From a virus (taxonomy: Duplodnaviria > Heunggongvirae > Uroviricota > Caudoviricetes), in IMG/VR virus record IMGVR_UViG_3300026302_000005, positions 273,301-337,300 of that record: a DNA stretch of 64,000 nucleotides; one strand, written 5' to 3'. Both the position numbers and the translations under genes were made by a program. A model generated the notes under the pieces. The model was given only the letters and a program-made list of their open reading frames with translations, was not told the DNA's origin and did no database searches. The stretch's first letter is position 1. The number at the start of each line of letters is the position of its first letter. Positions 19,119 to 55,845 of the stretch are shown one piece after another.

Positions 19119-19345
19119 GATGTGACCTCTTCGGCATTCTTCTTCAACGTTCGCACGATCAGATCATATGCGATCCGCAGATTCTGATCAGTTGCATCTC
19201 GGTGCAGAACAGCGTGATTTGGACAGATTTTGCGAAACCGATCCTGCTGCTCTTCCGTGCATTGCTCCAACAGGCGGTTGATCTCCGCCTGTAGAGCATT
19301 GTGCATGATGCTGGTTGCTGATGGATAGTCCATCAGATGTGGCAA
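19115..19345 (-). CDS. hypothetical protein (76 aa)
   Basis: ORF. Confidence 0.35.
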   Translation of the reverse strand: MPHLMDYPSATSIMHNALQAEINRLLEQCTEEQQDRFRKICPNHAVLHRDATDQNLRIAYDLIVRTLKKNAEEVTS

Positions 19346-20418
19346 TCCACAATCGTCAGCCGCATGGTCGGGGTCTTCATGGCGTCATCCAGGATGGCCT
19401 GGAATTCGGTCTCCCATGCACCCGCGTCCTTCTCGTCCGACACCATACCGAACCAGCCCATCTTGCCAGATTCGTTCCAGGTGCCGTTGTAGATGGCAGC
19501 GAATGCCGTGAGCGGCTTGACCGTGCCGACGTAATCATCCTCGGTCTTCATGGTTTCGGCATTCCAGCCCCACATGAAGTTGGCCGATCCGTTGACCTTC
19601 TTGATCTCATCCTCATCCTGGCCAGCTTTGGCAAGCTCCACCAGATACTTCGGGTATTCTTGACGGAACCAACGGCGGCGTTCCGCGATCTTGTCAGCCT
19701 TCATGCGGTCCCAGTTGATATCCACCAGGAGTGCAGTGTCCAGCCCACCCGTGTCGGGCTTGTCTTCCATGCCCCAGGACCGCTTGCCGCGATCACCCCC
19801 AGCACCATCCTTGACGAACAGCCGTTCGCTGTAGCGGCCACCGATGACCCACCAGTCCCACTGTGCGTTCGGGTTCGTCCGGTCGATGATGCGGGCGATA
19901 TCGCCATTCTCGTCCAGTTCGATCCAGCCGTATTTGGTTTCGTCGGCGGGCACCGATCCGAGCACCTTGTAGCTGTGCCAGTAATCGACGAACTCCGCGA
20001 ACGTCATGCATTCGGCCACTGAGATTTCGACCTCTTCCGATCCTTCCGGATAGTTCGGGGTGCGGGCATGATAGACGTCGGTGCCCCAGTTGTCCCTGGT
20101 CACCCGGCGTCCATCGGAAAGTTCACGGTCGTTGAAGAAGCCCTTCGACTTGAGATCGGCCTCTTCGACATCGGTCAGTTCCCGCCACAGCGAGTTGTCC
20201 CAGGCAGAAATCAACGTGCCATCGGCCAGTCGGAGCATCGACCGGGTGCGTTCCGGGTTGTTGTATTCTGCACGGGACCGCTCGGTGATGTCGATGTTCT
20301 GAACGAACTCGTTGTCCAATCCAGTGCATTCGAATTCGTGATACGGGGCCAGGGCCCGCTCCACGGTATCATCGGGGTCGGCGTCATTGGTGAAGACTGC
20401 AAGTGCAAAGTGGCTCAT
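19333..20418 (-). CDS. hypothetical protein (361 aa)
   Basis: Long ORF with no recognised motif. Confidence 0.5.
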   Translation of the reverse strand: MSHFALAVFTNDADPDDTVERALAPYHEFECTGLDNEFVQNIDITERSRAEYNNPERTRSMLRLADGTLISAWDNSLWRELTDVEEADLKSKGFFNDRELSDGRRVTRDNWGTDVYHARTPNYPEGSEEVEISVAECMTFAEFVDYWHSYKVLGSVPADETKYGWIELDENGDIARIIDRTNPNAQWDWWVIGGRYSERLFVKDGAGGDRGKRSWGMEDKPDTGGLDTALLVDINWDRMKADKIAERRRWFRQEYPKYLVELAKAGQDEDEIKKVNGSANFMWGWNAETMKTEDDYVGTVKPLTAFAAIYNGTWNESGKMGWFGMVSDEKDAGAWETEFQAILDDAMKTPTMRLTIVDCHI

Positions 20419-21641
20419 TTGATGTGTCCCATGGTTTGATAGGCGAGGTTGATCAGATATTCGCGGGAGGCCGAAAACTCAACACCTGCCCAAACGTCAC
20501 GCAGTTGTCTCAGAATTTTACCCATTTCCGGGCCAGGTGTAAAGCCCAAATCGATCAGGTCTTGACCGGTAATGGGAAATTCCGGAACGGCCATACCTTC
20601 GATATCCCGATACAGCGTGTTGAACCCGGTAGAACTCGGCCCTGTAGTGACTGGCTCCTTTCGGTTCATGATCGCAATCCACGCCAGAACATCCGACTTC
20701 TGATGAGTTGCCAGCATCTGCGTGGATGTGATTCGCGTGGGTGGAGTATCAAAGAACCGCTTAGCAAACAGCACCGGGTTCAGTTCTTCGCGGGAAACCT
20801 TGTAGCGATCTCGCAGCAGTGCCACGGCTTCTCCAATACCTGCTTGGGTTTTGGGAAAGCTTGCCGTCAGCATCACTGCGGGTCGGGTATCCGGTATGGG
20901 GATCAACAGGTTGCTGTCAACCGATGACAGTCCGATATGATCCAGCACTCCGGCACGTTTCATGCGGTTGAACTGACCCCAAGCTGGAGTTGTGCCCATT
21001 TGCAGGATTTTTCCGATTTCCGCCCAGATGCGCTCACCACTGATTTGCTCCAGACCCTTTGCGGTTTCCCGGAAGATTGGATAGAGCAGATCATCATCCC
21101 TGAATTTGGCATTACCTGCCATCTTGGCACAGAACCGAAAATACCGCAGAATTCGCAGATAGTCTTCGCGAATGCGATCCTCGGGGGCCCCGACGAACCG
21201 AATCGTGCCTTCATGCAGATCGGCCATGCCGTTGTGATAATCATGAACCACCAGGTTCACGTCCAGATACATCGCGTTCATGGTGAAGTCTCGACGCAGA
21301 GAATCAGTCATCCAATCCTCAGTGAACGCAACCTCGGCATGACGACCATCCGTGGCCACATCCACACGCAGGGTGGTGACTTCGATGTTTTCATTGCCCA
21401 CAACAACCGTCACGGTGCCGTGCTTGAGCCCGGTCGGCACAACTTGCAGACCAGCCTTTTCCATGATGGTGATGACGGCTTCTGGACGGGCTGTGGTGGC
21501 GATATCCCAGTCCTTGGGATCGCGGGCCATGATCAGGTCACGAACGGCACCACCGCAGATGCGACCTTCATGGCCAGCACCATCCAGCACCCACATCACA
21601 TGCAGAGCAGCAGGGTTGATATCGCTCAGATTAAACTGCAT
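20415..21641 (-). CDS. cca: tRNA nucleotidyltransferase (CCA-adding enzyme / poly(A) polymerase family head domain)
   Basis: Head-domain motif GGAVRDLIMARDPKDWDIATTARPE. Start taken at ATG 21641 (MQFNLSD); the track start at 21728 is a TTG. Confidence 0.7.
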   Translation of the reverse strand: MQFNLSDINPAALHVMWVLDGAGHEGRICGGAVRDLIMARDPKDWDIATTARPEAVITIMEKAGLQVVPTGLKHGTVTVVVGNENIEVTTLRVDVATDGRHAEVAFTEDWMTDSLRRDFTMNAMYLDVNLVVHDYHNGMADLHEGTIRFVGAPEDRIREDYLRILRYFRFCAKMAGNAKFRDDDLLYPIFRETAKGLEQISGERIWAEIGKILQMGTTPAWGQFNRMKRAGVLDHIGLSSVDSNLLIPIPDTRPAVMLTASFPKTQAGIGEAVALLRDRYKVSREELNPVLFAKRFFDTPPTRITSTQMLATHQKSDVLAWIAIMNRKEPVTTGPSSTGFNTLYRDIEGMAVPEFPITGQDLIDLGFTPGPEMGKILRQLRDVWAGVEFSASREYLINLAYQTMGHIK

Positions 21642-21835: not shown

Positions 21836-22453
21836 TTATCCTGGAATGTCAATCGGAAATCCACTCCGACCGAACTTGTGGACTTCGTTCCCTGCCGAGT
21901 CCCAGCCGTATCTTTCCTGTCGTGCGTATAGCTCCAGGTATGGGCCATCAAACAGACCCTCGATCATCCCGTATTGCTCATCTGGTTTACGGGAGTTCTC
22001 ACGCTTACCGGCAACCAACAGATCACGGGTGGATCGGTTCTTGAGGCTTGCAAGGGTCTGGAAATTCTTGGTGGTTGCGACCAGACAGGGCTCCAGGTTC
22101 TTCCTGGTGATGTAGCCTCCGCCGAATGCACGTTTGCCGGTTTCGGGATTGACCTTGTTCCATTCCCAGGCCAACCCGGAGTATTTGAATCCCCATGCCT
22201 CAATTACATCTCGGGCTTGGAAGATCGTCGGCCAGGTGGCCCACAGGAAGAGAACTGCACCATCAGGATGGATCATATCCCGGACGGGTTGCTCCATGAT
22301 ATGCTCGACTGGGGAGACGGGAGTCAGGTAGTGTCGCCCTGGACTCTTACCCTGACCTTTTGCCGAATAGGTTTTGAACTGCCAATCGGGATCGGCAAGG
22401 ATTACCCGATAGGTGTGCTTTGGAACGTCGTGGAAATTCAGATATGCTGTCAT
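21836..22453 (-). CDS. MT-A70 family DNA N6-adenine methyltransferase
   Basis: Motif ILADPDWQF (DPPW-type). Start at ATG 22453; the track ORF to 22555 overlaps the upstream gene. Confidence 0.6.
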   Translation of the reverse strand: MTAYLNFHDVPKHTYRVILADPDWQFKTYSAKGQGKSPGRHYLTPVSPVEHIMEQPVRDMIHPDGAVLFLWATWPTIFQARDVIEAWGFKYSGLAWEWNKVNPETGKRAFGGGYITRKNLEPCLVATTKNFQTLASLKNRSTRDLLVAGKRENSRKPDEQYGMIEGLFDGPYLELYARQERYGWDSAGNEVHKFGRSGFPIDIPG

Positions 22454-22480
22454 AGGGGGGATATGGTGTTCCCCCCTATG
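22449..22480 (-). promoter_or_regulatory. perfect 10-bp inverted repeat (CATAGGGGGG-N10-CCCCCCTATG) overlapping the methyltransferase start codon
   Basis: Read directly. It could sequester the ATG, or act as a terminator-like structure for the upstream gene. Confidence 0.4.
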
Positions 22481-22490
22481 ATGTTCAAGG

Positions 22491-22862
22491 TCACGCGGCT
22501 TCGTTTTCGCGTTCTGCCAGCTTCCGGGCGATGCCCATGGCCTTGGTCGCAGCACGAACCTGCATCAGCATGTCAGCCTCTTCCCGAAGGTAACGACGTG
22601 CAGCAGCGGCATCCGGGCTGTAGGTCGGGTTCGGGCCGATCTGGGTGCGCTTCGGCTGGGTGACGATGCGATTGGTCTCGCCACGACCACGGTAAGCATA
22701 GAGGAACGGCTTGCGATTGGCTTTGGCCGACCGGATTTGCACGATCAGGGCCTTGTAGATGGCCTTCCATTGTGCCACCCAGGCCATATAGTCCTGGCGA
22801 TCCTTGATGGAATCGGCCACCGCAATGAAGTCGTCGGTCGAGAGAGTTGCGTATTTCGTCAT
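22491..22862 (-). CDS. hypothetical protein
   Basis: ORF. Confidence 0.4.
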   Translation of the reverse strand: MTKYATLSTDDFIAVADSIKDRQDYMAWVAQWKAIYKALIVQIRSAKANRKPFLYAYRGRGETNRIVTQPKRTQIGPNPTYSPDAAAARRYLREEADMLMQVRAATKAMGIARKLAERENEAA

Positions 22863-27726: not shown

Positions 27727-27803
27727 TGGCGGCTCCGGTGGGACTCGAACCCACGACCAACAGTTTTAGAGACCGCTGCTCTAACCAACTGAGCTACGGA
27801 GCC
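27727..27803 (-). tRNA. amber suppressor tRNA (anticodon CTA, reads UAG); Trp-like body (loop CTCTAAA versus E. coli tRNA-Trp CTCCAAA; discriminator G)
   Basis: Acceptor GGCTCCG/CGGAGCC, D-arm GCTC-AGTTGGTTA-GAGC, anticodon stem GCGGT/ACTGT, T-arm GTGGG-TTCGAGT-CCCAC. Confidence 0.7.
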
Positions 27804-27804: not shown

Positions 27805-29004
27805 TTGCATAAATACATACGTGTTTCTGATAGAAGAGTCAACCCCATAATGCGCCTGTTACAACTCATTGAAGGGACTTCCGACTACATTGACAGGGCA
27901 AAGGATGCTCGTCGAAACATAAGTCTGGATTCCGTTGTTCAAAAAGCCTTGGATATGGCACAGACCGGTCAGTTTACAGAAGAGAGAACTAGGGCCATCA
28001 ATTTTGCTGCCGAAGTAATCCGATCCGGTAAACCCGCCGCTGTGGTGGGTAGAGAATGGGGCTATAAACCGCACAAATCGTTTAACCACAAACATATTGG
28101 ATTGCGACTGTTGATGCGGGCATATACGGTGCTTGGGGGCACACGATCTGGTGTTGATTTCCAATCCCTGATCGAAGCCCCTATTGGAGACTTTGGCACC
28201 ATCGGAGATTTCTCCGATCCCAACGCCTCGATCCCAAACGCTGCGGATCGTCGTGCTGTTACTGCTGAACCGATGATTCGTCGTATCAAGCTGGCTTGGG
28301 AAAAGACGCCATTTCTGTTCAACCTGTTTTTTGCCAACGTTCCCGGAGCCCAAAAGTGGGTAGAGCAGGGATATGTGAGTGCCGGAACTGTTCGATCCGA
28401 GTTTCCGGACATGGCCAGTCGTATCATGGCTGGAAAAGCAGACAAAGCAATCACTGTGGTATTCACCAACAACCTGGGGGATGCCGGGATCAGCTTTACC
28501 CCGTGGATCATGGCACACCGTATCAGCCACGCAATGGTGGTTCCCAACAATACGAATGATCCTCGGCAGGGTGTTCAGAACCGGGCATTCTACACGGGAT
28601 CGGAGAAACTATACACGTTCACCAACAGTCTGATCTATCAGATGTTCTCAAGGTCAACGGTTAGAGTGGGGTCTGATACCCATGAGCAGATATATCGGCA
28701 CATCTACGAATATATCGGCACCATGAAGTCTGCCAGATCGAAACTGCTGGCCCGACCAAATGAATTCTATCACGAACTGTTTGCCCAATACCTACTGAAT
28801 GGAGACATTACGTTCAATGCCTTCACTCCGGAATTTCTGCTGAACTTTGCGGAAGACTCGGGCACCGGGGAACAGCCCCATATCGAGCACCTCGATACCA
28901 TGCTGGGTGAAATGAATGAGACCCTTGCGGGTCTCAAACAGGAACTCCTGAACAGCTTTACGGCTGGGCTATCCCACGCTCAGGGCAAAGTCATCTTCAT
29001 GTGA
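27805..29004 (+). CDS. hypothetical protein (399 aa)
   Basis: Plus-strand ORF. Possible paralog of 25602..26744 with a degenerate H-motif (HRISH). Confidence 0.45.
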   Translation: MHKYIRVSDRRVNPIMRLLQLIEGTSDYIDRAKDARRNISLDSVVQKALDMAQTGQFTEERTRAINFAAEVIRSGKPAAVVGREWGYKPHKSFNHKHIGLRLLMRAYTVLGGTRSGVDFQSLIEAPIGDFGTIGDFSDPNASIPNAADRRAVTAEPMIRRIKLAWEKTPFLFNLFFANVPGAQKWVEQGYVSAGTVRSEFPDMASRIMAGKADKAITVVFTNNLGDAGISFTPWIMAHRISHAMVVPNNTNDPRQGVQNRAFYTGSEKLYTFTNSLIYQMFSRSTVRVGSDTHEQIYRHIYEYIGTMKSARSKLLARPNEFYHELFAQYLLNGDITFNAFTPEFLLNFAEDSGTGEQPHIEHLDTMLGEMNETLAGLKQELLNSFTAGLSHAQGKVIFM

Positions 29005-30112
29005 TCTGTTCCCATGGGTAGTCGTCATAGCCGAAATGCCCACGTGCAGCGGTCTGACGATAAAGGGGACGACGGAGATCGAACCGCTTGATGATGCCGG
29101 AGGGCGACAAGTCGATGGCGTAGTCTTCCAGGATTTCCCGGACCTCTTCCTCGTTCATACCATCCACATGCACCGAAACAGGCTTGGCAACACCGATGGC
29201 ATACCCAACTTGCACTTCGATGTCTCGCATACCATAGACGGCCTTGCAGAGCGTCTTTGCCACATGGCGGGCTGCATAGGCGGCAGATCGGTCAACCTTG
29301 GTCGGGTCTTTGCCAGAGAAAGCGCCACCACCGTGGCGAGCCATACCACCGTAGGTATCGATAATGATCTTCCGACCGGTCAAACCGGAGTCTGCAATTG
29401 GTCCACCAATCGTCCACGGCCCAGCCGGGTTGAGGAAGTATTTCGTATTCGGGGTGACCAGGTTCTGGTATGGCTCAAGCCCACGACGAACCACATCTTC
29501 CAGGTTCGAACGAATCAGACCATACATGCGTTCGGTAACATCGGTATGCACCGATGACAGAACCACGGTGTCGATCTCGATGGGCTCACCCGTATCGTTG
29601 TCATACCGTATCGTGACTTGTGACTTCGCATCCGGTCCCAGCGGGCCCTGACGACGATCCATCTTATGGGCATTGGTGATCGAGCGGGCCACCATCAACG
29701 GCAACGGCATCATCTCGGGCGTATCGTTGCAGGCATACCCGAACATCAGGCCCTGATCACCGGCACCCAGGTTCTCACCATCAGCGGTAACACTGTCACC
29801 GATCTCCCGGGACTGCTCCGTGATGTTGTGAATCTGCTTGACCTTCCACGGATCAAACCCCCATTGAGGATCATCATATCCAATGGCCGTCAGCGTATCT
29901 CGGACGATCTTGCTGATGTCGAGTTCTGCATTGGTGGTCAGTTCCCCGAACACCATAACAGTATCGCCTTTGACAGCAGATTCGATGGCAACACGGCTCA
30001 TCGGGTCCTGACGAAGGCATTCATCAAGAACGGCATCGCTGATCTGGTCACAGACCTTATCAGGGTGGCCATCAGCCACACTCTCCGACGTGAATAGGTA
30101 GGAACCTTTCAT
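28997..30112 (-). CDS. metK: S-adenosylmethionine synthetase
   Basis: N-terminus MKGSYLFTSESVADGHPDKVCDQISDAVLD and GGGAFSGKDPTKVDRSAAYAARHVAK are diagnostic of MetK. Confidence 0.9.
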   Translation of the reverse strand: MKGSYLFTSESVADGHPDKVCDQISDAVLDECLRQDPMSRVAIESAVKGDTVMVFGELTTNAELDISKIVRDTLTAIGYDDPQWGFDPWKVKQIHNITEQSREIGDSVTADGENLGAGDQGLMFGYACNDTPEMMPLPLMVARSITNAHKMDRRQGPLGPDAKSQVTIRYDNDTGEPIEIDTVVLSSVHTDVTERMYGLIRSNLEDVVRRGLEPYQNLVTPNTKYFLNPAGPWTIGGPIADSGLTGRKIIIDTYGGMARHGGGAFSGKDPTKVDRSAAYAARHVAKTLCKAVYGMRDIEVQVGYAIGVAKPVSVHVDGMNEEEVREILEDYAIDLSPSGIIKRFDLRRPLYRQTAARGHFGYDDYPWEQIT

Positions 30113-31124: not shown

Positions 31125-32849
31125 TTACTTCCCGGTCTTGCGGTCACCCATCGGTGCGCCACGCGGGTCTTGGGCCGGGGCGGGCTTTGCGGTGTTCAGT
31201 TTGCGCAGGAAGTCACTGTCGGCCAGGTCGATGGCCGTATCCAGCGGATCACGTGCGGTCTTCGGCGTCGAGATGCCGTCGAGAACCCCATTCAGCCCCT
31301 CGCTGATGTTGACCCCGGCCTGTTGACCAAGAGCTTGAACCAGCGGGAGTTGCAGGCCCATGCTGAGGATCGCGTCTGCGACTTGACCAGCAGCACCACC
31401 ACCGTTGCCAGTGGATTCGCCACCACCGATGTTTCCGCCGCCCATGCCGGTAACGTTGGTCAGGGTGATGCGGTCGATGTTCTGGGCAGGAGCCACCATT
31501 TCGGCGATGATCGCGGGCAGAGCTTCGAGGCGAGCCAGTTGCAGCTTCATCTCGATGATTTCCCCGGTCAGGGCGTTTTCGGCGGCGACCAGTGCGGTCT
31601 TACCTTCGGCTTCGGCCAGGGAGATGGCCAGGGAGCCTTCGGCTTCGGCCTTCTGGGCATCAGCTTTCGCCTTTGCACCGATCAGCACTGCATCAGCGTC
31701 GGCCTGGGCTTTGGTCAGCACCGCAGCAGCCGTATCTTCGGCAGCAGCACGTTGGGTTGCAGCAGCCACACGGGTAGCAGTTGCGGTCTTCTCGGCTTCC
31801 TGTTCGGCCTGGATGATCGCGATCTTCTTGTTACGGTCGGCCACGGCGACTTCACCAGCAGTCTTGACGGCTTCTGAGGCGGAGACCGCTTCGGCACGAG
31901 CAAGGTCGGCTTTGGCACGAGCTTCGGATTCCGCCATGGACTTCTCGTTGACCGCGATCTTACGATCTTGTTCAGCGATTTCCAGGGCCTGCTCTTGGGC
32001 GATACGTGCAGCCTCTTCGCGGCGAGTTGCTTCGGATTGGGCAACAGCGATTGCGGCCTTCGATTCAGCCGTCGCAGTGGACACGGCTTGCTCTTGGGCG
32101 ATCTTCGCTTCTTCCGTCTTCTTCTTGATGGCCAGTTCTTCAAGAACCGCAGTCTGCTCGGTCGTGGCAACCTGCACACGAGCTTCCGATGCGATCTGGG
32201 CGCGTTTCTTTTCGGAGTCAGCCACGACCTGGGCCAGCTTCTGCATACCAACGGCGTTGAAGGCGTTGTTGGCATCCATCTTGTTGAACGGGGTCTGGTC
32301 CAGCATGGTCAGCGATACCGATTCCAGTTCCAGGCCGTTCTGCACGAGGTCTTTGTCCACGGCATCCTGCACCTTTTGGACGAATTCCGCCCGCTTCTCG
32401 TGCAGTTCATCCATGGTCATCTGGGCACCGACCGAACGCAGGGCGTCAACCAGCTTGTCTTCGACCAGCGAACGCAGAGCCTGCGGATCGGACGTCGAGT
32501 TGCCAAGGGTCTTTGCAGCCTGGGTGATGCCTTCTTCATCCGGTTTGACACGGACGTAGAACTTGGTGCCCACATCGACACGCATACGGTCGGCGGTGAT
32601 CAGGGCTTCGGCACCAGAGCGAATGATCTCCAGACCGAGGGTCTTCATGTTGACCCAGGTCAGTTCGTGCATCATCGGGATGATGAGTGCGCCACCGTTC
32701 TGGATGACTTTCTTGCCACCAGCACCGGTGCGGATCATGGCCCGCTCGGGGGTGGTGCGCTTGTAGAGCCGAGCGATGATGAAACCGAAGATGACGATGG
32801 TCACCAGGGCAATCACTGCCGGAACTCCGAGGGTTAGAAGCGTGTTCAT
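31125..32849 (-). CDS. flotillin / SPFH (band 7) family protein, YqiK-like
   Basis: N-terminal TM helix, SPFH domain (IIPMMHELTWVNMKTLGLEI...), long Ala/Glu-rich coiled coil. Confidence 0.75.
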   Translation of the reverse strand: MNTLLTLGVPAVIALVTIVIFGFIIARLYKRTTPERAMIRTGAGGKKVIQNGGALIIPMMHELTWVNMKTLGLEIIRSGAEALITADRMRVDVGTKFYVRVKPDEEGITQAAKTLGNSTSDPQALRSLVEDKLVDALRSVGAQMTMDELHEKRAEFVQKVQDAVDKDLVQNGLELESVSLTMLDQTPFNKMDANNAFNAVGMQKLAQVVADSEKKRAQIASEARVQVATTEQTAVLEELAIKKKTEEAKIAQEQAVSTATAESKAAIAVAQSEATRREEAARIAQEQALEIAEQDRKIAVNEKSMAESEARAKADLARAEAVSASEAVKTAGEVAVADRNKKIAIIQAEQEAEKTATATRVAAATQRAAAEDTAAAVLTKAQADADAVLIGAKAKADAQKAEAEGSLAISLAEAEGKTALVAAENALTGEIIEMKLQLARLEALPAIIAEMVAPAQNIDRITLTNVTGMGGGNIGGGESTGNGGGAAGQVADAILSMGLQLPLVQALGQQAGVNISEGLNGVLDGISTPKTARDPLDTAIDLADSDFLRKLNTAKPAPAQDPRGAPMGDRKTGK

Positions 32850-32873
32850 GTGAGTTGTAGCTCCACTAGAAGG

Positions 32874-33632
32874 TTACGATTGAAGGCGAGATTGGGCGGT
32901 ATCAAGGCGAAGAGCCTCATAGACCGGCCCCGGTCCACGAAGAACCAGAACGTCGGTTCCTTGTGGTAGTTCAGGCTCCCCAGCATACGGGATCACCCGG
33001 ATGTTGTGGAGGTTTCCATGCCGGTCGCGGACATCGGCACGAGCAGGAAGATCAACACGGGCAGTGCCAATGGCAATCTTTCCGACCGAGCCACCGAGCG
33101 AGCGGCGTGATATGATATCGGTGGTGGTCTTGGGGATCAGACTGGCGAATGCACGACTGATCCACTTGGTGCCGATCAGGGCCGGGACAAACGCCGCAGC
33201 CGATGCGATCCATCCGAACAGCATGAACCCGAGCAGGCTTTGCAGAACGAACTGACCCAGGAAGCCGACGATGGAAAAGCTTGCAGCAAATCCGATCAGC
33301 CACACCATCAGCGGGACCGAACCGATTTCAAACCATTTGAGAACAGATTCGAGGGCTGACACATCGCCAACATCTGCGACATTCGCATCTGCATCAGCAC
33401 CACCCATGTCGAAGGCAATACGAATGTCCCCTTCGACATCGGCCACGTTGACATCGATTTCCGGGTCCAGGTCGATGTCAGCATCACTGTCACCACCGAG
33501 AATAGAGAACCCCGTGGTGATCGACATGATCACTTCCAACACCAGCACAGCCAGCAGGAGAGCCGCCGCAATGCCGAATGGATAGAGCGGGCCACCAGAG
33601 GTAAAGAGCAGTTCCATAGAGAGTTGTCCCAT
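32874..33632 (-). CDS. NfeD-like / YqiJ-like membrane protein (partner of flotillin)
   Basis: Multi-TM N-terminal region plus a C-terminal OB-like segment (GTDVLVLRGPGPVYEAL), located immediately upstream of the flotillin gene. Confidence 0.55.
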   Translation of the reverse strand: MGQLSMELLFTSGGPLYPFGIAAALLLAVLVLEVIMSITTGFSILGGDSDADIDLDPEIDVNVADVEGDIRIAFDMGGADADANVADVGDVSALESVLKWFEIGSVPLMVWLIGFAASFSIVGFLGQFVLQSLLGFMLFGWIASAAAFVPALIGTKWISRAFASLIPKTTTDIISRRSLGGSVGKIAIGTARVDLPARADVRDRHGNLHNIRVIPYAGEPELPQGTDVLVLRGPGPVYEALRLDTAQSRLQS

Positions 33633-33651
33633 CGTTGTCCCTCGTTTCGAA

Positions 33652-34152
33652 TCAGGTTGGGTTGCTTATCGCATGTGGTTCAGCATTCGTCAATGGCAAG
33701 TCGTAGACCACTACATGACGATCTTTCATTGCGAACTCAATGATCTGGGAGATAGTTTTCCAATCACCCCCACCCAGGGACGATCCGATCCGAGGAATCG
33801 CCACAACCGGGATGTCATGATAGTCGTCATCGATATTCTCTGTGATCCAGTCGTAGACTTGAACAAAGATCGATTCGATTCCCTGGTAGCTCACATACTG
33901 TTTGCCATCACGACCGAACCACTCCTGGGACACCGCATTGGCGATGAACTTCCCCTTGGTTGGCACCCAGACGATCTGCCCGACACGGAGACCGGATAGC
34001 TCGTATGCGGCCCGATATCCGGCATATGCTTCGGGGTAGACTTCACGAATGGCCTTCGCCACCCCCGAGCCCATCACGCCCTGAGCGTTGCAGCCGTGAA
34101 GGATGATGGGTTCATCAGCGACCATGAGATCGCCCGTTTTGTAGATCAACAC
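33652..34152 (-). CDS. macro-domain protein (ADP-ribose binding / O-acetyl-ADP-ribose deacetylase-like)
   Basis: Motif ILHGCNAQGVMGSGVAKAI. The probable start is a TTG at 34152. Confidence 0.65.
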   Translation of the reverse strand: MLIYKTGDLMVADEPIILHGCNAQGVMGSGVAKAIREVYPEAYAGYRAAYELSGLRVGQIVWVPTKGKFIANAVSQEWFGRDGKQYVSYQGIESIFVQVYDWITENIDDDYHDIPVVAIPRIGSSLGGGDWKTISQIIEFAMKDRHVVVYDLPLTNAEPHAISNPT

Positions 34153-35219: not shown

Positions 35220-36194
35220 CTAGATGCCCTTTTTGATAAGCCGCTCGAACTCTCGAAGCCGCTTGTAAACGGAGATCAATTCGACAATCGTCGGCCACGA
35301 TTTCACCAGAAACTGCAAGCTGGTTTCGACCCGACCGAATGCACGAACGATCTGTTGAACCACACCCAGTGTAACCAGTCCACCGGCGATGGTAGGTGCC
35401 AGAGCCAGATATGGGACGATCACCATACCTTGGAAGTATGACCAACGAAACATGTTGAAATACATGTAGTGGAAGTAGGATCGGTAGTGAACCTTGCGGA
35501 CACGATCATATAGGTCCGTTAGCACGGGTTTGTCGATCATGATGGGATCATTCTCGGCCAACACCAGCCGCTTTCGATATGCAGCCTCTTCCTTTTGAAT
35601 GTCATACTCGATGCCAGGGAGCTTATAGCCCACGATGGCCAGCGCAATGGTGCCACCCAGTGCTGCAATGATCGCCACCCACACCAGACCGTGGGATACC
35701 TCTCCCACCCATGGAAGCATGGTAACGCTCTTGGACAATTCCCATAGAATCGGGACGAAGGCCACAAGGGTCAGGATGGCATCCAACAGACCAACACCCA
35801 GGCTTTCCATGATCCTGGCAAACTTCAAGGTGTCTTCCTGAACTCGCTGCGATGCCCCCTCGATGGTTCGAGCTTTCCCGTAGTGTTCGTGGTAGTATTC
35901 GGTCATACTGGTGCGCCACCGGAAAATCCAGTGGGACGTGAAGAAGTCTTTGGCAACCGAGATGACCACCCATAGCCCAGCTATACCAGCGAATGTGAAC
36001 AGCAAACTGATGAACTCGGCTTCGGTAACCGATCCAGGTTCAGTCAGAGCCTTCTGTAGGACGTCGTAGAAGGAACCAAACCACTCGTTGATCTGGACGT
36101 CAAGCTGAACCATCCACCAGGATGCGATGATGATCACCCCAGTCCCCATGATACTCCAGGGTAGCCACTTACGGGTATAGAAAAATCTGAACAT
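35220..36194 (-). CDS. sbmA: SbmA/BacA-family inner-membrane peptide transporter homolog
   Basis: Blocks RWRTSMTEYY, EGASQRVQEDTLKFA, AAYRKRLV and FHYMYFN match E. coli SbmA (recalled from memory). Confidence 0.65.
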   Translation of the reverse strand: MFRFFYTRKWLPWSIMGTGVIIIASWWMVQLDVQINEWFGSFYDVLQKALTEPGSVTEAEFISLLFTFAGIAGLWVVISVAKDFFTSHWIFRWRTSMTEYYHEHYGKARTIEGASQRVQEDTLKFARIMESLGVGLLDAILTLVAFVPILWELSKSVTMLPWVGEVSHGLVWVAIIAALGGTIALAIVGYKLPGIEYDIQKEEAAYRKRLVLAENDPIMIDKPVLTDLYDRVRKVHYRSYFHYMYFNMFRWSYFQGMVIVPYLALAPTIAGGLVTLGVVQQIVRAFGRVETSLQFLVKSWPTIVELISVYKRLREFERLIKKGI

Positions 36195-36253: not shown

Positions 36254-36796
36254 TCAGGTGTTCCGGTCGTAGTGACTGGCCCTGACTTGCTCAGGTCGAA
36301 TGACTATCGCCGCTTTTGGGAGATGAATCAGGACCTCATGTTCTACAATCCCAGACATGATATCACCCTCGCTGTCGTCATGATACTCAGCGGGTAGGTC
36401 TGGGAAGTAGAACAACACGTTCGCGGCTGGAAAATGCGATTCTATGATGATCGTTGGTAGACCATCACCTATGGTGTCGCCATAGAAATACTCCACCATG
36501 TCTTCATTGGTAGACCACGATGACACCAACCCGGTTTCATACCGGATTGGGCGTTTCTGTTCGATCAGTGTCACCCAATCCTGCTCGGGTATCGCAGTAG
36601 AACGGTATACCGTTCCTATTGAGGTCCGGACCATGCTTTTCAGTTCAGGGGCATGCTGTAGTAGAAAGTCTGTCAGAAACTTTTTGGTTCCGTCCACCCT
36701 AGCAGATGGTCGCATGGTGGACCACCTATGCAGCATATTGAGAAGATCACTTTGTGATTCCCAATCTACCCGCTCTACCAGATCACGAAGTTTCAT
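36254..36796 (-). CDS. hypothetical protein
   Basis: ORF. Confidence 0.4.
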   Translation of the reverse strand: MKLRDLVERVDWESQSDLLNMLHRWSTMRPSARVDGTKKFLTDFLLQHAPELKSMVRTSIGTVYRSTAIPEQDWVTLIEQKRPIRYETGLVSSWSTNEDMVEYFYGDTIGDGLPTIIIESHFPAANVLFYFPDLPAEYHDDSEGDIMSGIVEHEVLIHLPKAAIVIRPEQVRASHYDRNT

Positions 36797-37475
36797 TCCA
36801 CAACTCGTCCATGAAGCCTTTCATGTATTTACTGGCCGTCATGGTGCGGTTCGTGCCATGATGCTGAACTCGATCATCTTGGAATCGAATCGTCACAGTC
36901 TTATCACCACGCATTCCCGAGCCGACCTGAGCCTTGCGATCCGCAGCCATGTCCGCGTGTTGTGCGCCCTCTGCCATGCCATCCAGGCGGGCTTCCAGGG
37001 CCTCACGAGCCTCACGATAGCTGGTATCACGGGAACGGGTCTGACGGGCCTCCAGGAGCCCCGTGGGGACGTGTGTGAGCCTACAACTGTTCTGGTGCTT
37101 GTTCCGGTGTTGTCCACCAGCACCGGAGCCGCTGAACCATTCAACCTGGAAGTCAGAATCTTCGCGACAAAGATATGCGGGGTCAACCTGGCGATCTGGG
37201 TCAAGAACAGCAACGATGACCGTGCTGGTATGGACGCGACCGCGACGTTCGGTTGGGGGAACTCGTTGGATGCGATGGCCACCGGCAGCATACTCCAACC
37301 CAGATAGATCATCACCGATTACGGTAATCCGGATTCCGTGCTGGCCGTTATCCTCGGTTAGGTGTAGTCACCCATAGCGCACCGCCATGCGGCGATAGGC
37401 TTGTGCAAGGTCCTGCACAAACAGTTGGCTGTCTTTTCCACCTTCGGCGGATTTGATCTCAATGATCTTTTTCAT
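36783..37475 (-). CDS. prfH: RF-H (PrfH)-like peptide chain release factor homolog lacking RF domain 1; in-frame TGA at codon 36 (37368..37370) aligned to a conserved Trp of RF1
   Basis: GGQ motif (SGSGAGGQHRNK). PxT-type motif (GGHRIQRVPPTE). The upstream segment MKKIIEIKSAEGGKDSQLFVQDLAQAYRRMAVRYG-[TGA]-LHLTEDNGQHG aligns with RF1 [34 protein letters not shown]. RBS GGAGA upstream of ATG 37475. Confidence 0.6.
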
Positions 37476-38786: not shown

Positions 38787-39149
38787 TCATGGAAGCTCGA
38801 TGGTGTCTCGGATGGCAGCAAAATCCATATCCATCCATTTGTCCATGAACTCCTGCGGTGCAGGCGGCACATCATCCAGGCTTGCTACAGGGGTGAACTC
38901 CCAGCCGAATGAACCGTTGTAGTATTCGATCTGGAGCTTCATACGGCGGCGAACATCGTCCGGAGTGGCACCCTGCACACACAGATCGTGCTCCAGGGCC
39001 TGACCGATCCACACCGGGATGTCATTGTCCCGGAAAATCAAAACTCGCATCATCGTATCCTGATTATTGGCGGAAGCGGTGGGATTCGAACCCACGGACC
39101 CCGAAGGGCCGACAGTTTTCAAGACTGTAGGCATAAGCCACTCGCCCAC
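38787..39149 (-). CDS. hypothetical protein
   Basis: ORF. It may be shortened by overlap with tRNA-Ser. Confidence 0.3.
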   Translation of the reverse strand: MGEWLMPTVLKTVGPSGSVGSNPTASANNQDTMMRVLIFRDNDIPVWIGQALEHDLCVQGATPDDVRRRMKLQIEYYNGSFGWEFTPVASLDDVPPAPQEFMDKWMDMDFAAIRDTIELP

Positions 39150-39155
39150 GCTTCC
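39068..39155 (-). tRNA. tRNA-Ser (anticodon TGA), class II
   Basis: Acceptor GGAAGCG/CGCTTCC, anticodon stem ACAGT/ACTGT, loop CTTGAAA. Confidence 0.75.
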
Positions 39156-39251
39156 ATTCGATGTCCTCGGGGGGTGTGCAGATGCAGTGACCGTTTCCCG
39201 AGGCTCACATGATCTATTTAGTCGAGGTGGTCTGTTACGTCAAGAGGGATT

Positions 39252-39339
39252 TGGCGGAAGCGGGGAGATTCGAACTCCCGGAACCCGAAGGCTCGTCTGT
39301 TTTCGAAACAGGTGCAATCGTCCACTCTGCCACGCTTCC
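39252..39339 (-). tRNA. tRNA-Ser (anticodon CGA), class II
   Basis: Acceptor GGAAGCG/CGCTTCC, loop TTCGAAA. Confidence 0.65.
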
Positions 39340-39372
39340 ATAACGACTATTTAGCGCAACCCTATAGGTATG

Positions 39373-40119
39373 TCAATCGTATGTCATACCAAGAAACTGA
39401 AAAATCTGGGTCAAATCCCCACGATAGTTTTCCAGGTCACCGGTTTGACCGGATCGGTTGTCCATGATGTAGGTGGTGTTTCCGGGCTCGGTAATGATGG
39501 ATTTGAACATCTCACTGGGAACACACACAGAATCGCCAATCAGTGTCGGGTTTTTGTTGAGGATAGCACCGGTCACAATGTAGGTCGGAGCTTCTTCGCG
39601 ATCCGCCACTATCGACCGGGCCAGAAACTCTAACCGACGCCATATGCCCCGGTTGAACCCTGGGTTCTGTGGGACCACGTTGCTGAGATAGAATGTCTGG
39701 AGCATGCTTACGCTATCCTCCATCATGTCCCCGGCTGGAACCATATGTCCGCGATCATATCCAGAACCACGGTAGTCGGATGGAGTTGATGCATGATCCT
39801 GGAGCAATCCCGGATCGACCCGGAATACGTCGGTGCGTGGCTCTATTCCATCGACCTCACTGGCCACCAGGTTTTCAAACGTCAAGATCGGTATTTTGCA
39901 GCGAGTGTCATAGATGATCGCGTAGTTGATACGACAGATCGTGATCAACCCCTCTCGATCAGACATCAGTTCAAACGGGAAGAACTGCGGACACCGACTC
40001 TGCTGTAGCCCATCGTAGTAGTTGGGGATGTCCGTGTAAACGGGGTTCTCAATGTATTCGGCCCTGACACCGATGGGTGTCAGGGCCAACAACAAGGCAA
40101 GGATCGCTCTGATGATCAC
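39373..40119 (-). CDS. secreted DNA/RNA non-specific endonuclease (NucA / Serratia nuclease family)
   Basis: Signal peptide MIIRAILALLLALTPIGVRA. Catalytic DRGHMVP motif. Confidence 0.7.
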   Translation of the reverse strand: MIIRAILALLLALTPIGVRAEYIENPVYTDIPNYYDGLQQSRCPQFFPFELMSDREGLITICRINYAIIYDTRCKIPILTFENLVASEVDGIEPRTDVFRVDPGLLQDHASTPSDYRGSGYDRGHMVPAGDMMEDSVSMLQTFYLSNVVPQNPGFNRGIWRRLEFLARSIVADREEAPTYIVTGAILNKNPTLIGDSVCVPSEMFKSIITEPGNTTYIMDNRSGQTGDLENYRGDLTQIFQFLGMTYD

Positions 40120-40715
40120 AGATCAGGCTCGTCGATCAGGTTCAGGACATACCGCAGGGCCATGGCACCAAGCTGGATCGCCTCCTTGCGGGCTTCCGGC
40201 GACGTGCCGGTATCGGCCTTCACGTGTTCCCAAAGCTCCTCGAACTCCTCGCGGATCACCGAGCTTGCCTCATGGGGGGAGTTCAACGGCGCATGAATCG
40301 ATGCTGCACGGCGGGCCTCGTTGGCGATGTCCAGGGCGATTCGCAGAATGGCGTCACCATCATCGTCATCACTTCCATCTTCGAAGCCAGCATCATTCGG
40401 ATCGAAGTAGTCCATGCTGGACATAGCTTCCTGGATCGCCCGATGGAGTCCGTCCATGTCGCTGCTGTCGGAGACGATCAGGACAACCCCTCCATTGCCG
40501 TTCATGAGGTCATACTCATTGAACTGTGGTTCAACCGCAGGGGCAACCGGCGATGATGGATTCATACGACCCTCGATCAGATCGGCGAGATCGGGAGCCC
40601 CCTGTTGAAGTTTGGCGATGATGTCTTCGAGTAGGCTACGTGCAGTTGTTCCCATCGGGGGTCTCCAGGTTCGGGTTACAAGATGGCATATAAAGGTCAT
40701 CATCGGTGAGTTCAA
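40116..40715 (-). CDS. highly acidic protein, putative nuclease inhibitor / immunity protein (NuiA-like role)
   Basis: The product is D/E-rich. The gene lies immediately upstream of the nuclease gene and is coupled to it by an ATGA overlap. Confidence 0.35.
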   Translation of the reverse strand: MNSPMMTFICHLVTRTWRPPMGTTARSLLEDIIAKLQQGAPDLADLIEGRMNPSSPVAPAVEPQFNEYDLMNGNGGVVLIVSDSSDMDGLHRAIQEAMSSMDYFDPNDAGFEDGSDDDDGDAILRIALDIANEARRAASIHAPLNSPHEASSVIREEFEELWEHVKADTGTSPEARKEAIQLGAMALRYVLNLIDEPDL

Positions 40716-40929
40716 CCCCGGTTACGACTTTTAGTATCGTCCGTGGGGGAACTTCGGTAGCAACCAGCTTCACACGTTGGATGTCTCGTTTGGGAATGTC
40801 ATAGTGGGGCCTTCTGCCACCATGATACCAATGTCGAGCAATACCAAGTTGCTCAGCCATCGCATGCAGGTTCTCGACCGAATACGGAACACACACGAGG
40901 TGTCGCATCCGATCAAACAGATAGATCAT
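40636..40929 (-). CDS. DUF4031-like protein (HYDI motif)
   Basis: YHGGRRPHYDIPKRD. Confidence 0.35.
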   Translation of the reverse strand: MIYLFDRMRHLVCVPYSVENLHAMAEQLGIARHWYHGGRRPHYDIPKRDIQRVKLVATEVPPRTILKVVTGVELTDDDLYMPSCNPNLETPDGNNCT

Positions 40930-41183
40930 GGAAGTTTGATCTTGTCGAGGATCGCAAAGGGGATCATGTCGGTCAGATCATCCATTCGCCGCCATGCCAC
41001 GATCTTGGTGGAAACATCAAAGTGAAACAGACCATTGATGACCACCATGTATCCGTTGGAGATTTTCCGGCTGCTGTGGATCGCATAGAGCGAACCATGG
41101 ACGGGTTTCTCGAAAAGAATCAGAACGGCCTCTCCATCCGGTGGAGGTGTCTCATCATAATCGACCCAGCCGTGGTTGCTCAT
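40926..41183 (-). CDS. hypothetical protein
   Basis: ORF. Confidence 0.3.
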   Translation of the reverse strand: MSNHGWVDYDETPPPDGEAVLILFEKPVHGSLYAIHSSRKISNGYMVVINGLFHFDVSTKIVAWRRMDDLTDMIPFAILDKIKLP

Positions 41184-41244
41184 CCCAATCTCCCATCATA
41201 ATCGGCCTCTGTTGTGGCACTACTATCAGGTTATAGACTGGATG

Positions 41245-41457
41245 TCAACGCCTTCCCCAAGGATCACCCCAAGATGCGTAGTCGGCGTGTTCTGATTTGG
41301 CCGATTGAAGAGCTTCGATGAGGTTTCCGATATCCCCGACTGGGATCGTGACGGATGTGGTATCGGGCTCGTTGTCCCAAGCTTGTGGGTTCTTGACGGT
41401 GATCGTTACACTGTTGTTGTGATACGACACCCGGGTGTTACCGATGTAGTGGGTCAT
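41245..41457 (-). CDS. hypothetical protein
   Basis: ORF. Confidence 0.3.
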   Translation of the reverse strand: MTHYIGNTRVSYHNNSVTITVKNPQAWDNEPDTTSVTIPVGDIGNLIEALQSAKSEHADYASWGDPWGRR

Positions 41458-41772
41458 TCAACACCCCGTGCCATTTCCAGAGGTTCCACCGTGAGTCGAA
41501 ATGATGGTAGAATCGCCGACTTCGATCTTTGTTCCACGAGGGGGCTGGGTAAGTCGATAGATCACCACCGCGTCGTCAAGAAGGTCTTGTGGTGTTTTAG
41601 GCGGCACCGGAACATACCATTCACCGGTCACGATCCACTGCTCATCGCGGGGCTGATAGCCACTATCGCTGACCTGGATGATACGACGCTTGCCAGTTCT
41701 GGAGTGAACCTGGTATCGATGGATACCGGTATCCCGGACTGTATTCCAATGACCGAAACCAAACATGATCAC
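41458..41772 (-). CDS. hypothetical protein
   Basis: ORF. Confidence 0.35.
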   Translation of the reverse strand: MIMFGFGHWNTVRDTGIHRYQVHSRTGKRRIIQVSDSGYQPRDEQWIVTGEWYVPVPPKTPQDLLDDAVVIYRLTQPPRGTKIEVGDSTIISTHGGTSGNGTGC

Positions 41773-41780
41773 ACCACCTG

Positions 41781-42161
41781 CTATTCTGATAGTTGATAGA
41801 TTCTGGCACCGGTGGAGACTGACATTGCCGGATACAACGAGGTGACGAGCTTTTCCATATCCGGATCGGGCACATCAACCATCAAGACTGTGGAAAGGGT
41901 GCGACCGCGTAGACCCTCGGAACGACTGGAACAGATGACCAGCGTCGGCCCACCAGCTTCCCAAACTTTGAACATCTTATTGTCGGTGGTTCGTTTGCCA
42001 AAGAACAGATCGTTGATCGCACATATACGGTCTACCAATGCTTTGGGGTATTTGCCGGGACCGTGAACAAGCGCGAGTGTCGAATAGTTGACCAACTTGT
42101 CCTCTTTGATCAGTAATAGAAAGAGGAGTCCTAGATCAGATATCTTGATTGGCGTAGTCAT
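41781..42161 (-). CDS. hypothetical protein (126 aa)
   Basis: The track ORF to 42269 overlaps tRNA-Ser. ATG 42161 has a GAGG RBS. Confidence 0.35.
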   Translation of the reverse strand: MTTPIKISDLGLLFLLLIKEDKLVNYSTLALVHGPGKYPKALVDRICAINDLFFGKRTTDNKMFKVWEAGGPTLVICSSRSEGLRGRTLSTVLMVDVPDPDMEKLVTSLYPAMSVSTGARIYQLSE

Positions 42162-42179
42162 CAGAACCTCATGTGGTGT

Positions 42180-42267
42180 TGGCGGATGGTGAGGGATTCG
42201 AACCCTCGGAACCTTTCGGTTCTCTCCCTTAGCAGGGGAGTGCGATAGACCGCTCTGCCAACCATCC
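42180..42267 (-). tRNA. tRNA-Ser (anticodon GCT), class II
   Basis: Acceptor GGATGGT/ACCATCC, anticodon stem CTCCC/GGGAG, loop CTGCTAA. Confidence 0.75.
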
Positions 42268-42349
42268 AAATGTAACCTGCATGTTCCCCAGCTAAGGGAT
42301 CAGGGTGCTACCCAATCTGCGTCCGGTTACCCGACTCCAATTCGAAATC

Positions 42350-42437: not shown

Positions 42438-42448
42438 ATACGATCTAT

Positions 42449-43188: not shown

Positions 43189-43203
43189 ACGATCCTCGTG
43201 TTT

Positions 43204-55844: not shown

Positions 55845-55845
55845 A

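Follow-up and report, generated by a model that had tools for sequence, protein, structure and literature searches.

We analysed 64,000 nucleotides of a Caudoviricetes genome (IMG/VR record IMGVR_UViG_3300026302_000005, positions 273,301 to 337,300), called the window below and used as the coordinate frame throughout. The window carries a gene for a shortened derivative of the bacterial release factor RF1 (36783..37475), expression of which appears to depend on a conserved in-frame UGA, together with genes for a predicted CCA-adding enzyme (20415..21641), a Pth2-fold homologue of peptidyl-tRNA hydrolase (49598..50089) and at least 29 tRNAs, among them an amber suppressor. Its G+C content is 53.9%, nearly all of its genes lie on the minus strand, and TGA is the most frequent terminator (52 of the 69 called genes). 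A search of GenBank phages for near-identical DNA found none close to the window. Metagenomic contigs of ~376 kb (ENA ERZ27233589 k141_207220, 375,951 bp) encode proteins 99-100% identical to those of the window, which falls within the tRNA island of an uncultivated jumbo phage of ~376 kb; the host is probably an alphaproteobacterium. An earlier note on this DNA had pictured the CCA-adding enzyme, a PTH2-like hydrolase, an "RF-H-like" factor and the suppressor tRNA as a toolkit with which the phage might remodel or repair the host translation apparatus; it missed the conserved UGA within the release-factor gene.

A search for the GGQ motif found a release-factor open reading frame (ORF) at 36783..37298, which we extended to 36783..37475 (-), a gene of 230 codons including one in-frame UGA. 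Profile hidden Markov models (HMMs), profile matches to the PDB and AlphaFold2 (AF2) modeling all bear on its identity. The protein matched PF00472 with 55.7 bits and PF03462 (PCRF) with 33.3 bits. Among the NCBIfam models, those for prfA scored 131-134 bits, prfB 60 and prfH (TIGR03072) 39; the prfA matches began at model position ~170 and remained under the 400-423 cutoffs of these models. In the PDB, the E-values were 4e-35 for RF1, 1e-15 for RF2 and 1.2e-4 for PrfH (9mor). The RF1-type decoding sequence RIQRVPPTE...HTS is kept, and both its PPT (the PxT motif; residues 73-75, 37251..37259 (-)) and the GGQ (residues 120-122, 37110..37118 (-)) are conserved across the family alignments. The joined 230-residue sequence aligned with RF1 over domain 2 and everything C-terminal to it, beginning at RF1 position ~87-112. 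The AF2 model of a full-length relative (P0061, 68% identical to the window protein) had a mean predicted local distance difference test score (pLDDT) of 91.5 and superposed on domains 2-4 of ribosome-bound RF1 with TM-query values of 0.86-0.90 and root mean square deviations of 2.2-3.1 Å, RF1 ranking ahead of RF2. The gene is thus an RF1 derivative lacking domain 1. It shares with bacterial RF1 (prfA) domains 2-4, the PxT and GGQ motifs, the RF1-type decoding region and a superposable predicted structure, and differs from it by the absence of the ~110-residue domain 1, by a tripeptide that is invariantly PPT and by the in-frame UGA. Domain 1 is not needed for codon-specific release and serves the interaction with RF3 (PMC1586002).

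We considered whether domain 1 might be encoded separately, as in a split RF1, and found no PCRF similarity in the upstream ORFs. The two ORFs upstream (110 and 259 amino acids) and the one downstream (180 amino acids) had no Pfam match. The "RF-H-like" label of the earlier note was right in that the gene encodes a GGQ release-factor homologue and wrong as to the family. PrfH is likewise a class I release-factor homologue with a GGQ and without domain 1; unlike the phage factor, which has a PxT tripeptide and the neighbors of which are ORFs without a Pfam match, an SbmA/BacA-like transporter gene and, in related loci, tRNA genes, it has an altered tripeptide and an obligatory upstream rtcB (PMC1586002). 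We rejected a PrfH identity on the TIGR03072 score of 39 bits against a cutoff of 166.65, the E-value of only 1e-4 for PrfH in the PDB, the PPT tripeptide and the lack of an rtcB gene nearby. Beyond the 180-residue ORF, two genes downstream of the RF1-like gene, lies a gene for an SbmA/BacA-like inner-membrane peptide transporter (35220..36194 (-); PF05992, E 2e-131). SbmA is an importer of proline-rich peptides that hold release factors trapped on the ribosome. The proximity of such a gene to a release-factor gene could be either meaningful or fortuitous.

Since the RF1 match started exactly at the first residue of the called ORF, we read the frame upstream of it. A same-frame ATG at 37475, preceded by GGAG, opens a run of 35 codons (MKKIIEIKSAEGGKDSQLFVQDLAQAYRRMAVRYG) that ends in a TGA (codon 36, 37368..37370 (-), in the context GGG TGA C), after which the frame continues into the called ORF. 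The RF1 homology runs on both sides of this TGA. In an ungapped reading the TGA coincides with the Trp of the '[KR]GW' element of RF1 (ERKGW in T. maritima), which makes it a candidate site of programmed readthrough. A scan of IMG/VR yielded at least 255 contigs with relatives of the gene at 51-60% identity. In all 78 of the viral loci that could be parsed, the position of codon 36 was TGA, with no other stop and no sense codon, and a Gly codon always preceded it. The proteins of the 76 distinct genes have a median pairwise identity of 65%, yet the TGA is invariant. The ratio of nonsynonymous to synonymous polymorphism (pN/pS) was 0.30 in the 35 codons that precede the UGA and 0.32 in the bulk of what follows. 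The first codon at which translation could restart lies anywhere from 4 to 148 codons past the UGA, in several members beyond the GGQ, and none is conserved. The constraint on both sides together with the lack of a conserved restart codon indicates that the two parts are translated in one frame as one protein. Reinitiation after the TGA was rejected on the same ground, and a +1 or -1 frameshift at the TGA was rejected on the observation that both alternative frames meet a TAA within 4-7 codons; only the zero frame continues.

The internal stop has left its mark on the databases. Most of the entries of this family are truncated products of 155-193 amino acids, and the full-length ones have Trp at the site: one (P0126) has TGG in its DNA, and two others have TGA and were translated with code 4. 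A TGG variant of the site was seen in one rare lineage (L081/L082). Thus, a large family of RF1-derived factors has been systematically truncated by gene callers on account of the conserved UGA. The internal stop and the truncated calls could also be taken to mean that the gene is a pseudogene or an assembly error, in which case the large distances and the lack of conserved synteny among the translation genes of the window would fit a chance juxtaposition of unrelated accessory genes. We consider this extremely improbable, and its pseudogene part is effectively refuted: the same TGA occurs in 84 independent assemblies, cultured isolates included, purifying selection acts on either side of it, and the decoding and catalytic motifs are conserved family-wide. 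Against chance juxtaposition stand the recurrent location of the release-factor gene inside tRNA arrays and the co-occurrence of the CCA-enzyme and PTH2-like genes across phage genomes.

Six of the copies with this TGA (84 assemblies together with the viral loci) come from bacterial assemblies, namely Thalassospira xianhensis, Jiella sp., Gemmobacter caeni, metagenome-assembled genomes (MAGs) of Sphingobium and Sphingomonas, and a Pseudobdellovibrionaceae MAG. These copies point to alphaproteobacterial hosts, and the family as a whole spans the viral contigs and alphaproteobacterial isolate assemblies. In Gemmobacter caeni DSM 21823 (NZ_QBKP01000002.1, 380972..387646), the TGA-interrupted gene is embedded in a run of 8 tRNA genes on a contig of 446 kb. 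This contig may represent a prophage or a jumbo phage that was co-assembled, and it would offer a cultivable system. Same-strand tRNA genes were found within 3 kb of the release-factor gene in 38 of 60 related loci. In two IMG/VR contigs a tmRNA gene lies within ~0.5 kb downstream of it (L048, 4194..4650; L051, 4183..4604).

The only matches to the gene among GenBank phages, at 32-36% identity, include the huge phages LR756501, LR756502, LR756504 and LR745206 published by Al-Shayeb and coworkers (L191, L188, L192 and L189, respectively), the genomes of which are 635-735 kb long, have ~30% G+C around the gene and are unannotated. Their RF1-like genes have 224-232 codons, also lack domain 1 and retain PPT and GGQ. 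Each contains one or two in-frame TGAs, at codons 39, 44, 46, 52 and 54, followed by A or C, and ends in TAA. A 49-kb stretch of LR756502 uses the standard code, its longest ORFs containing no TGA and many TGG codons. In-frame UGA thus recurs in the shortened RF1 genes of phages regardless of its position, which argues for selection on the stop codon itself.

The proposed readthrough of this codon has to be seen against the use of TGA elsewhere in the phage. Seventeen conserved genes of the window contain 120 TGG codons, no internal TGA besides the release-factor site and no internal TAG, and 12 of them end in TGA. TGA is therefore an ordinary stop in this phage and not a sense codon. These counts bear on a different explanation, in which the suppressor tRNA and the release factor form a module that reprograms stop codons during infection, as in the recoded gut phages of Borges and coworkers, so that late genes with in-frame TAG or TGA would be expressed late only, and the TGA of the release-factor gene is one recoded late codon. 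Such a module is suggested by the amber suppressor tRNA, by the TGA at a Trp position as in code 4, by the use of code 4 for some family members in annotation pipelines, by the two TGAs of some huge-phage homologues, which would fit efficient UGA decoding, and by the RF1 and TGA suppressor described for the TGA-recoded Jade phages (bioRxiv 10.1101/2021.08.26.457843). We judge it improbable here. Besides the codon counts above, a scan of the window for genes split in the same frame gave nothing convincing, no tRNA(UCA) was found in the window, its flanks or near the gene in related loci (see below), and the region of LR756502 uses the standard code. Moreover, the suppressor reads UAG, at which the RF1-like factor would terminate, so that the pair would be antagonistic. 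What the window shares with the modules of Borges and coworkers (suppressor tRNA, RF1 or RF2 and an aminoacyl-tRNA synthetase) is the presence of a release factor and a suppressor tRNA in one genome; it differs from them in showing no genome-wide recoding in the ~84 kb inspected, in the opposing actions of a UAG suppressor and a UAA/UAG factor, and in that lysis genes are not adjacent.

We next compared the termination context of the internal TGA with that of the genuine stops. The internal TGA is followed by A, G or C and never by U (0 of 76 genes); the terminators of the same genes are TAA in 70 of 76 and are followed by U in 34 of 76. In the window gene itself the internal site is TGA-C and the real stop TGA-T. 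A U in the +4 position strengthens bacterial termination (PMC5289835). These observations are consistent with readthrough at a weakly terminating UGA, and the simplest route to full-length factor would then be decoding by near-cognate tRNA-Trp, with the ancestral residue restored. Readthrough of UGA as Trp is classical in phage Qβ. Alternatively, the UGA could be read by a dedicated decoder, through insertion of selenocysteine or by a phage or host suppressor tRNA that escaped detection. That the codon is invariably UGA, that predicted structure is modestly greater near the site than in a control segment and that lineages with multiple UGAs exist would fit such a decoder. Nevertheless, the equivalent residue in RF1 and in the TGG-bearing relative is Trp and not Cys, and the positions of the UGA vary between lineages. 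No conserved stem-loop or sequence motif beyond the coding constraint was found downstream of the UGA, and no tRNA(UCA) or selenocysteine tRNA was detected in the window, in its flanks (20 kb in total) or within 3 kb of the release-factor gene in 60 loci. We therefore regard a dedicated decoder as quite improbable. The 10 kb beyond each edge of the window also lacked tRNA-Trp and structural genes. The Hirsh-type U11:A24 feature is present in some of the nearby phage tRNA-Trp genes and absent from others and was uninformative.

The second translation gene, at 20415..21641 (-), encodes a predicted class II tRNA nucleotidyltransferase (CCA-adding enzyme) of 408 amino acids. Its ATG, at 21641, is preceded by a Shine-Dalgarno-like GGAAG and overlaps the end of a 56-codon ORF. 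The earlier note had proposed this assignment, with coordinates that proved right, and the HMM searches support it directly: the PolyA_pol head domain PF01743 matched with 109.9 bits (E 1.4e-31), and Pfam also found the RNA-binding domain PF12627. Motifs A-E are present, including GGAVRD at residues 30-35, DWD at 44-46, RRD at 116-118 (within RRDFTMN, 116-122), the region of motifs C and E (DYHNGMADL, 134-142; GERIWAE, 202-208) and motif D, EDxxR, the nucleotide-selecting template, which lies within EDYLRILRYFRF at 159-170 and is identical to that of human mitochondrial TRNT1 in the alignment. TRNT1 is the best solved relative and aligns with residues 23-406 (E 3.6e-65), body and tail included. 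An uninterrupted region between motifs A and B, with the flexible loop for addition of A76, and a body and tail that bind tRNA would be expected of a CCA-adding enzyme as opposed to a CC-adding enzyme or a poly(A) polymerase; over residues 23-124 the alignment with TRNT1 contains a single one-residue gap, and matches to poly(A) polymerases cover the head alone (6-216). The best NCBIfam model was that of CCA tRNA nucleotidyltransferase; the pcnB model scored 143 bits, under its cutoff of 305. PHROGs assigned the protein to PHROG 2244, tRNA nucleotidyltransferase. With tblastn, homologues were found in 204 phage records, the best of which (33-37% identity) are tRNA-rich phages of Caulobacter, Brevundimonas, Sinorhizobium, Agrobacterium and roseobacters, where the gene is mostly annotated as a tRNA nucleotidyltransferase. 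A search of IMG/VR by exact 8-residue peptide patterns found no close relative; this and scores under the NCBIfam equivalog cutoffs set the window enzyme apart from the known class II enzymes (TRNT1, PHROG 2244), which it resembles in its motifs and full-length alignment. Judged by its sequence, this identification is firm, and the gene belongs, as an ordinary member, to a family already known from phages.

The gene that follows (19333..20418 (-)) encodes a 361-residue protein of phrog_10079, the function of which is not known. Since its start overlaps the stop of the CCA gene by 4 nt, the two proteins are probably co-translated. In Caulobacter phage CcrPW and Sinorhizobium phage Phosso the CCA gene lacks this neighbor. 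On the upstream side of the CCA gene of the window, a gene for an MT-A70 family methyltransferase (21836..22555 (-)) lies ~200 nt away.

The role of the CCA-adding enzyme depends on the tRNA genes. ARAGORN found 28 of these in the window, all on the minus strand. Rfam confirmed 26 of them and added a 109-nt match at 4436..4544 (-) with 38.5 bits, a 29th tRNA that ARAGORN misses by default; in intron mode ARAGORN reads it as a tRNA-Pro(CGG) interrupted near the anticodon arm by an intervening sequence of 23 nt. A first cluster (4436..11121 (-)) comprises this interrupted tRNA-Pro, five Leu isoacceptors, Thr, two each of His, Asn and Tyr, and Phe. Two tRNA-Met(CAU) genes follow at 17144..17309 (-), the amber suppressor at 27727..27803 (-), a cluster of four Ser, two Val and two Ala tRNAs with protein genes in between at 39068..43982 (-), and tRNA-Thr, two tRNA-Gly and tRNA-Arg(CCU) at 54041..56708 (-). 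Cys and Met tRNA genes lie just beyond the window edge. The His(GUG), Asn(GUU), Tyr(GUA) and Met(CAU) genes form tandem isoacceptor pairs (10057..10773 and 17144..17309 (-)), the members of which differ in sequence and length. The earlier note had also recognized the suppressor tRNA; its anticodon is CUA, and Rfam scores it as a tRNA with 70.2 bits. Its best matches were tied among Met, Trp, Arg and Asn tRNAs, which leaves its origin equivocal. At 52085..53302 (-), ORFs of 222 and 179 codons in the same frame are separated by a TAG (52634) and 9 nt, and the amber suppressor could in principle fuse them; since each starts with a hydrophobic (membrane) helix of its own, they are probably two separate genes.

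The discriminator and CCA (N-CCA) are encoded in all 28 ARAGORN tRNA genes and in the interrupted tRNA-Pro gene, contrary to the claim of the earlier note that many of them lack it. The CCA-adding enzyme is consequently not required for the maturation of the phage tRNAs, and a predicted role in repair is favored. In organisms whose tRNA genes encode CCA, cca repairs trimmed or damaged 3' ends.

The third protein gene (49598..50089 (-)) encodes a 163-residue homologue of Pth2 peptidyl-tRNA hydrolase. A database search with this protein returned 56 proteins including itself, and 24 of the other 55 carried a precomputed PF01981 match. An alignment of 49 of these sequences left K24, H31, D102 and P103 invariant, and the profile built from it matched the Pth2/Bit1 entries 1rlk, 1xty, 1q7s and 2zv3 of the PDB with E-values of 2.5e-5 to 9e-4. 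K24 and D102 correspond in the alignment to K18 and D86 of Pth2 from S. solfataricus (1xty), which we take to be its catalytic residues. The AF2 model of the protein had a pLDDT of 95.3, and in a Foldseek search with it the top 12 PDB matches were all Pth2/Bit1, with a probability of 1.00 and TM-target values of 0.70-0.82. By profile, model and fold search, the protein is placed in the Pth2 fold family, although PHROGs lists it in phrog_1866 as 'unknown function'. It resembles Pth2 (PF01981; 1xty, 1rlk, 2zv3; human Bit1/PTRH2, 1q7s) in its fold, its GK...HA motif and its catalytic Lys and Asp; it differs in being ~45 residues longer than archaeal Pth2, with insertions, and it is only 15-21% identical to the solved structures. 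About 750 nt from this gene lies an NAD+ salvage-like pair (46734..48854 (-)), in which a NadR-like gene (a cytidylyltransferase-like region and AAA_28) stands beside one for PnuC, a transporter of nicotinamide riboside or nicotinamide mononucleotide.

We then asked how far these genes travel together. Among the records listed for each search, 21 of the 25 with a PTH2-like gene are also among the 25 with the CCA enzyme, so that the two genes co-occur in the same phages of alphaproteobacteria. The two genes are 10-30 kb apart in Caulobacter and Brevundimonas phages and much farther apart in other phages. Four long IMG/VR contigs carry the release-factor and PTH2-like genes together, once 5 kb apart, and another contig has a canonical PTH2 gene ~2 kb from the release-factor gene. 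In the window, the genes between or near the three are those for the MT-A70 methylase, MetK, a flotillin/YqiJ pair, a macro-domain protein, the SbmA/BacA-like transporter, a non-specific endonuclease, an AAA ATPase, the NadR-like protein, PnuC, an HNH endonuclease, a DNA ligase and a NinI-like phosphatase. The view of a toolkit in one phage region is only loosely right: all the genes are in the window, but 12-28 kb filled with unrelated accessory genes separate the three protein genes.

Genes of this kind have been discussed before. Al-Shayeb and coworkers (2020, PMC7162821) reported huge phages with a CCA-adding enzyme, RF1, RF2, ribosome recycling factor and tmRNA, and Iyer and coworkers (2021, PMC7824862) read the CCA enzyme and PTH2 that jumbo phages encode as adaptations to attack by the host, serving RNA repair and ribosome rescue. 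The idea of the earlier note that the phage maintains or repairs translation is thus reasonable and already published for jumbo phages; the argument offered for it fails in three places, namely the supposed CCA-less tRNAs, the PrfH identity and the repair of PrrC/RloC damage. A CCA-adding enzyme cannot mend the anticodon-loop cuts made by PrrC or RloC, and the nuclease test that had been proposed is therefore misdirected. A narrower form of the idea is that the CCA enzyme, the Pth2 homologue and the release factor constitute a dedicated counter-defence kit that undoes the damage caused by host nucleases and toxins targeting tRNA or the ribosome, that is, trimmed or extended 3'-CCA ends, acetylated aminoacyl-tRNA and ribosomes jammed by cleaved tRNA. 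Repair is the only obvious task of the CCA enzyme when all tRNA genes encode CCA, the published reading of the jumbo-phage CCA and PTH2 genes is the same, and the 29 or more tRNAs of the phage would fit replacement of a depleted pool. On the other hand, no RNA ligase, Pnkp, RtcB, Rnl or RlaP-type partner was found among the ~66 window proteins scanned, the genes are dispersed and without conserved neighbors, and the release factor keeps full stop-codon specificity, unlike the rescue factors ArfB and PrfH; the anticodon-loop cuts, too, are beyond a CCA enzyme. A dedicated kit of this sort, which would be compatible with the explanation we prefer, seems to us rather unlikely, though it deserves consideration.

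The explanation we prefer, and hold to be moderately probable, is a dispersed, non-operonic set of translation-maintenance genes together with a shortened RF1 whose synthesis is gated by a UGA. The CCA enzyme would repair and maintain damaged tRNA 3' ends rather than mature the phage tRNAs. The Pth2-type hydrolase would recycle tRNA from peptidyl-tRNA or N-blocked aminoacyl-tRNA. The RF1-like factor, which has kept PxT and GGQ and lost the domain 1 that interacts with RF3 and L11, would terminate at UAA and UAG without RF3, and its full length would require readthrough of the UGA. As UGA is read by RF2 only and not by an RF1-type factor, the yield would be set by competition between RF2 and tRNA-Trp, and the output of the factor would be insulated from its own activity. 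Two uses of such an arrangement can be envisaged. The UGA may throttle a potentially harmful RF3-independent factor to a low level. Alternatively, saturation of RF2, for instance by the mRNAs of the phage (in the window, ~75% of the genes end in UGA), may raise the level of the factor, which would then take over termination at UAA.

The nearest parallel is the +1 frameshift of prfB, in which a release-factor gene is also interrupted early by a UGA in a weak termination context (here UGA C) and the full-length yield depends on the efficiency of UGA termination (textbook knowledge and PMC3521657). The phage gene differs in that it continues in the same frame, by readthrough and not by a +1 shift, and in that the factor sensed (RF2) is not the RF1-type factor encoded. 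The UGA may thus provide cross-regulation or throttling rather than autoregulation. The eRF1-like gene of Mimivirus and Megavirus (Jeudy et al. 2012, PMC3521657) likewise encodes a viral class I release factor that needs recoding of internal stop codons; it belongs to a eukaryotic virus, has the archaeo-eukaryotic eRF1 fold and uses two different recoding events, a readthrough and a frameshift, in contrast to the bacterial RF1 fold and UGA readthrough alone of the phage case.

Several observations weigh against the explanation we prefer. Distances of 12-28 kb separate the three genes, which are not organized as an operon, and apart from tRNAs no conserved neighbors of the CCA or release-factor gene were found among the relatives; the gene order suggests that the "toolkit" is a co-occurrence rather than a functional unit. 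CCA-adding activity, as opposed to A-adding, CC-adding or poly(A) activity, is predicted from the motifs and the TRNT1 alignment, and the 176 bits of the top NCBIfam model lie under the equivalog cutoff of 290. The PTH2-like protein by itself reached only 18.0 bits with PF01981 (gathering cutoff 23), over its N-terminal 40 residues, and had no match in the NCBIfam scan. Since its own Pfam score is under the cutoff, its placement rests on the family profile and the fold, by which the PTH2 assignment of the earlier note held up. Downstream of the UGA, RNA folding gave a mean z-score of -1.9, against -0.8 in a control segment, and revealed no convincing stimulator; synonymous conservation is raised there but is confounded by the variability of the amino acids. 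An RF1-type factor and an amber suppressor tRNA would compete for UAG in one phage. Basal readthrough would produce very little protein from those huge-phage genes that contain two UGAs, which hints at an efficient, dedicated decoder. Finally, stop-codon recoding was inspected in ~84 kb of the 376-kb genome, and late genes elsewhere may be recoded.

A more general proposition is that the domain-1-less RF1 genes of phages are as a rule gated by in-frame UGA, which would wire the synthesis of a UAA/UAG terminator to the status of RF2 and UGA decoding. This rule would cover one UGA at Trp codon 36 in the large environmental family and one or two UGAs at other sites in the huge-phage lineage, and we regard the balance of evidence for it as even. 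If it is true, this would be the first recoding circuit in the RF1 family, a counterpart to the prfB frameshift that acts by cross-regulation, and it could allow large phages to sense or time shifts in the termination capacity of the host. A reviewer comment in the 2006 PrfH paper states that the RF1 family has no recoding-based regulation (PMC1586002). We found no published account of an in-frame UGA in phage RF1 genes in a literature search of incomplete coverage, which left most subscription journals outside, and an earlier report may exist. That jumbo phages combine a CCA enzyme, PTH2 and tRNAs has been published before, along with the same reading as repair and rescue, and this part of the window is another well-verified example of that pattern with corrected reasoning for the repair role. 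What appears to be new is an RF1 derivative without domain 1, the expression of which, to judge from the conservation of the codon, depends on an in-frame UGA. If the UGA is regulatory, the gene would be a compact natural sensor of RF2 activity or UGA suppression, a new example of phage recoding and a handle on how tRNA-rich phages manage termination. It would be relevant to genetic-code engineering and to the annotation of phage genes that are now mis-called or labeled as pseudogenes.

Some further genes were noted in the window and beyond it. Between the tRNA clusters lie genes for an ATP-dependent DNA ligase (13734..15029 (-); PHROG 114, with PDB matches to DNA ligases) and a NinI-like Ser/Thr metallophosphatase (16005..16658 (-)), neither of which is RNA-repair-like. 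A full-length metK, for S-adenosylmethionine synthetase, is found at 28997..30112 (-), ~1.2 kb from the suppressor tRNA gene, and genes for a flotillin/SPFH protein, a YqiJ (NfeD-like) membrane protein and a macro-domain protein stand in a row at 31125..34152 (-). About 4.5 kb past the high edge of the window (L168, 3967..5469) there is a gene for a 500-residue protein with a faint ART-PolyVal match, followed by one for a protein with a cREC_REC domain, and TelA and radical SAM genes lie farther out.

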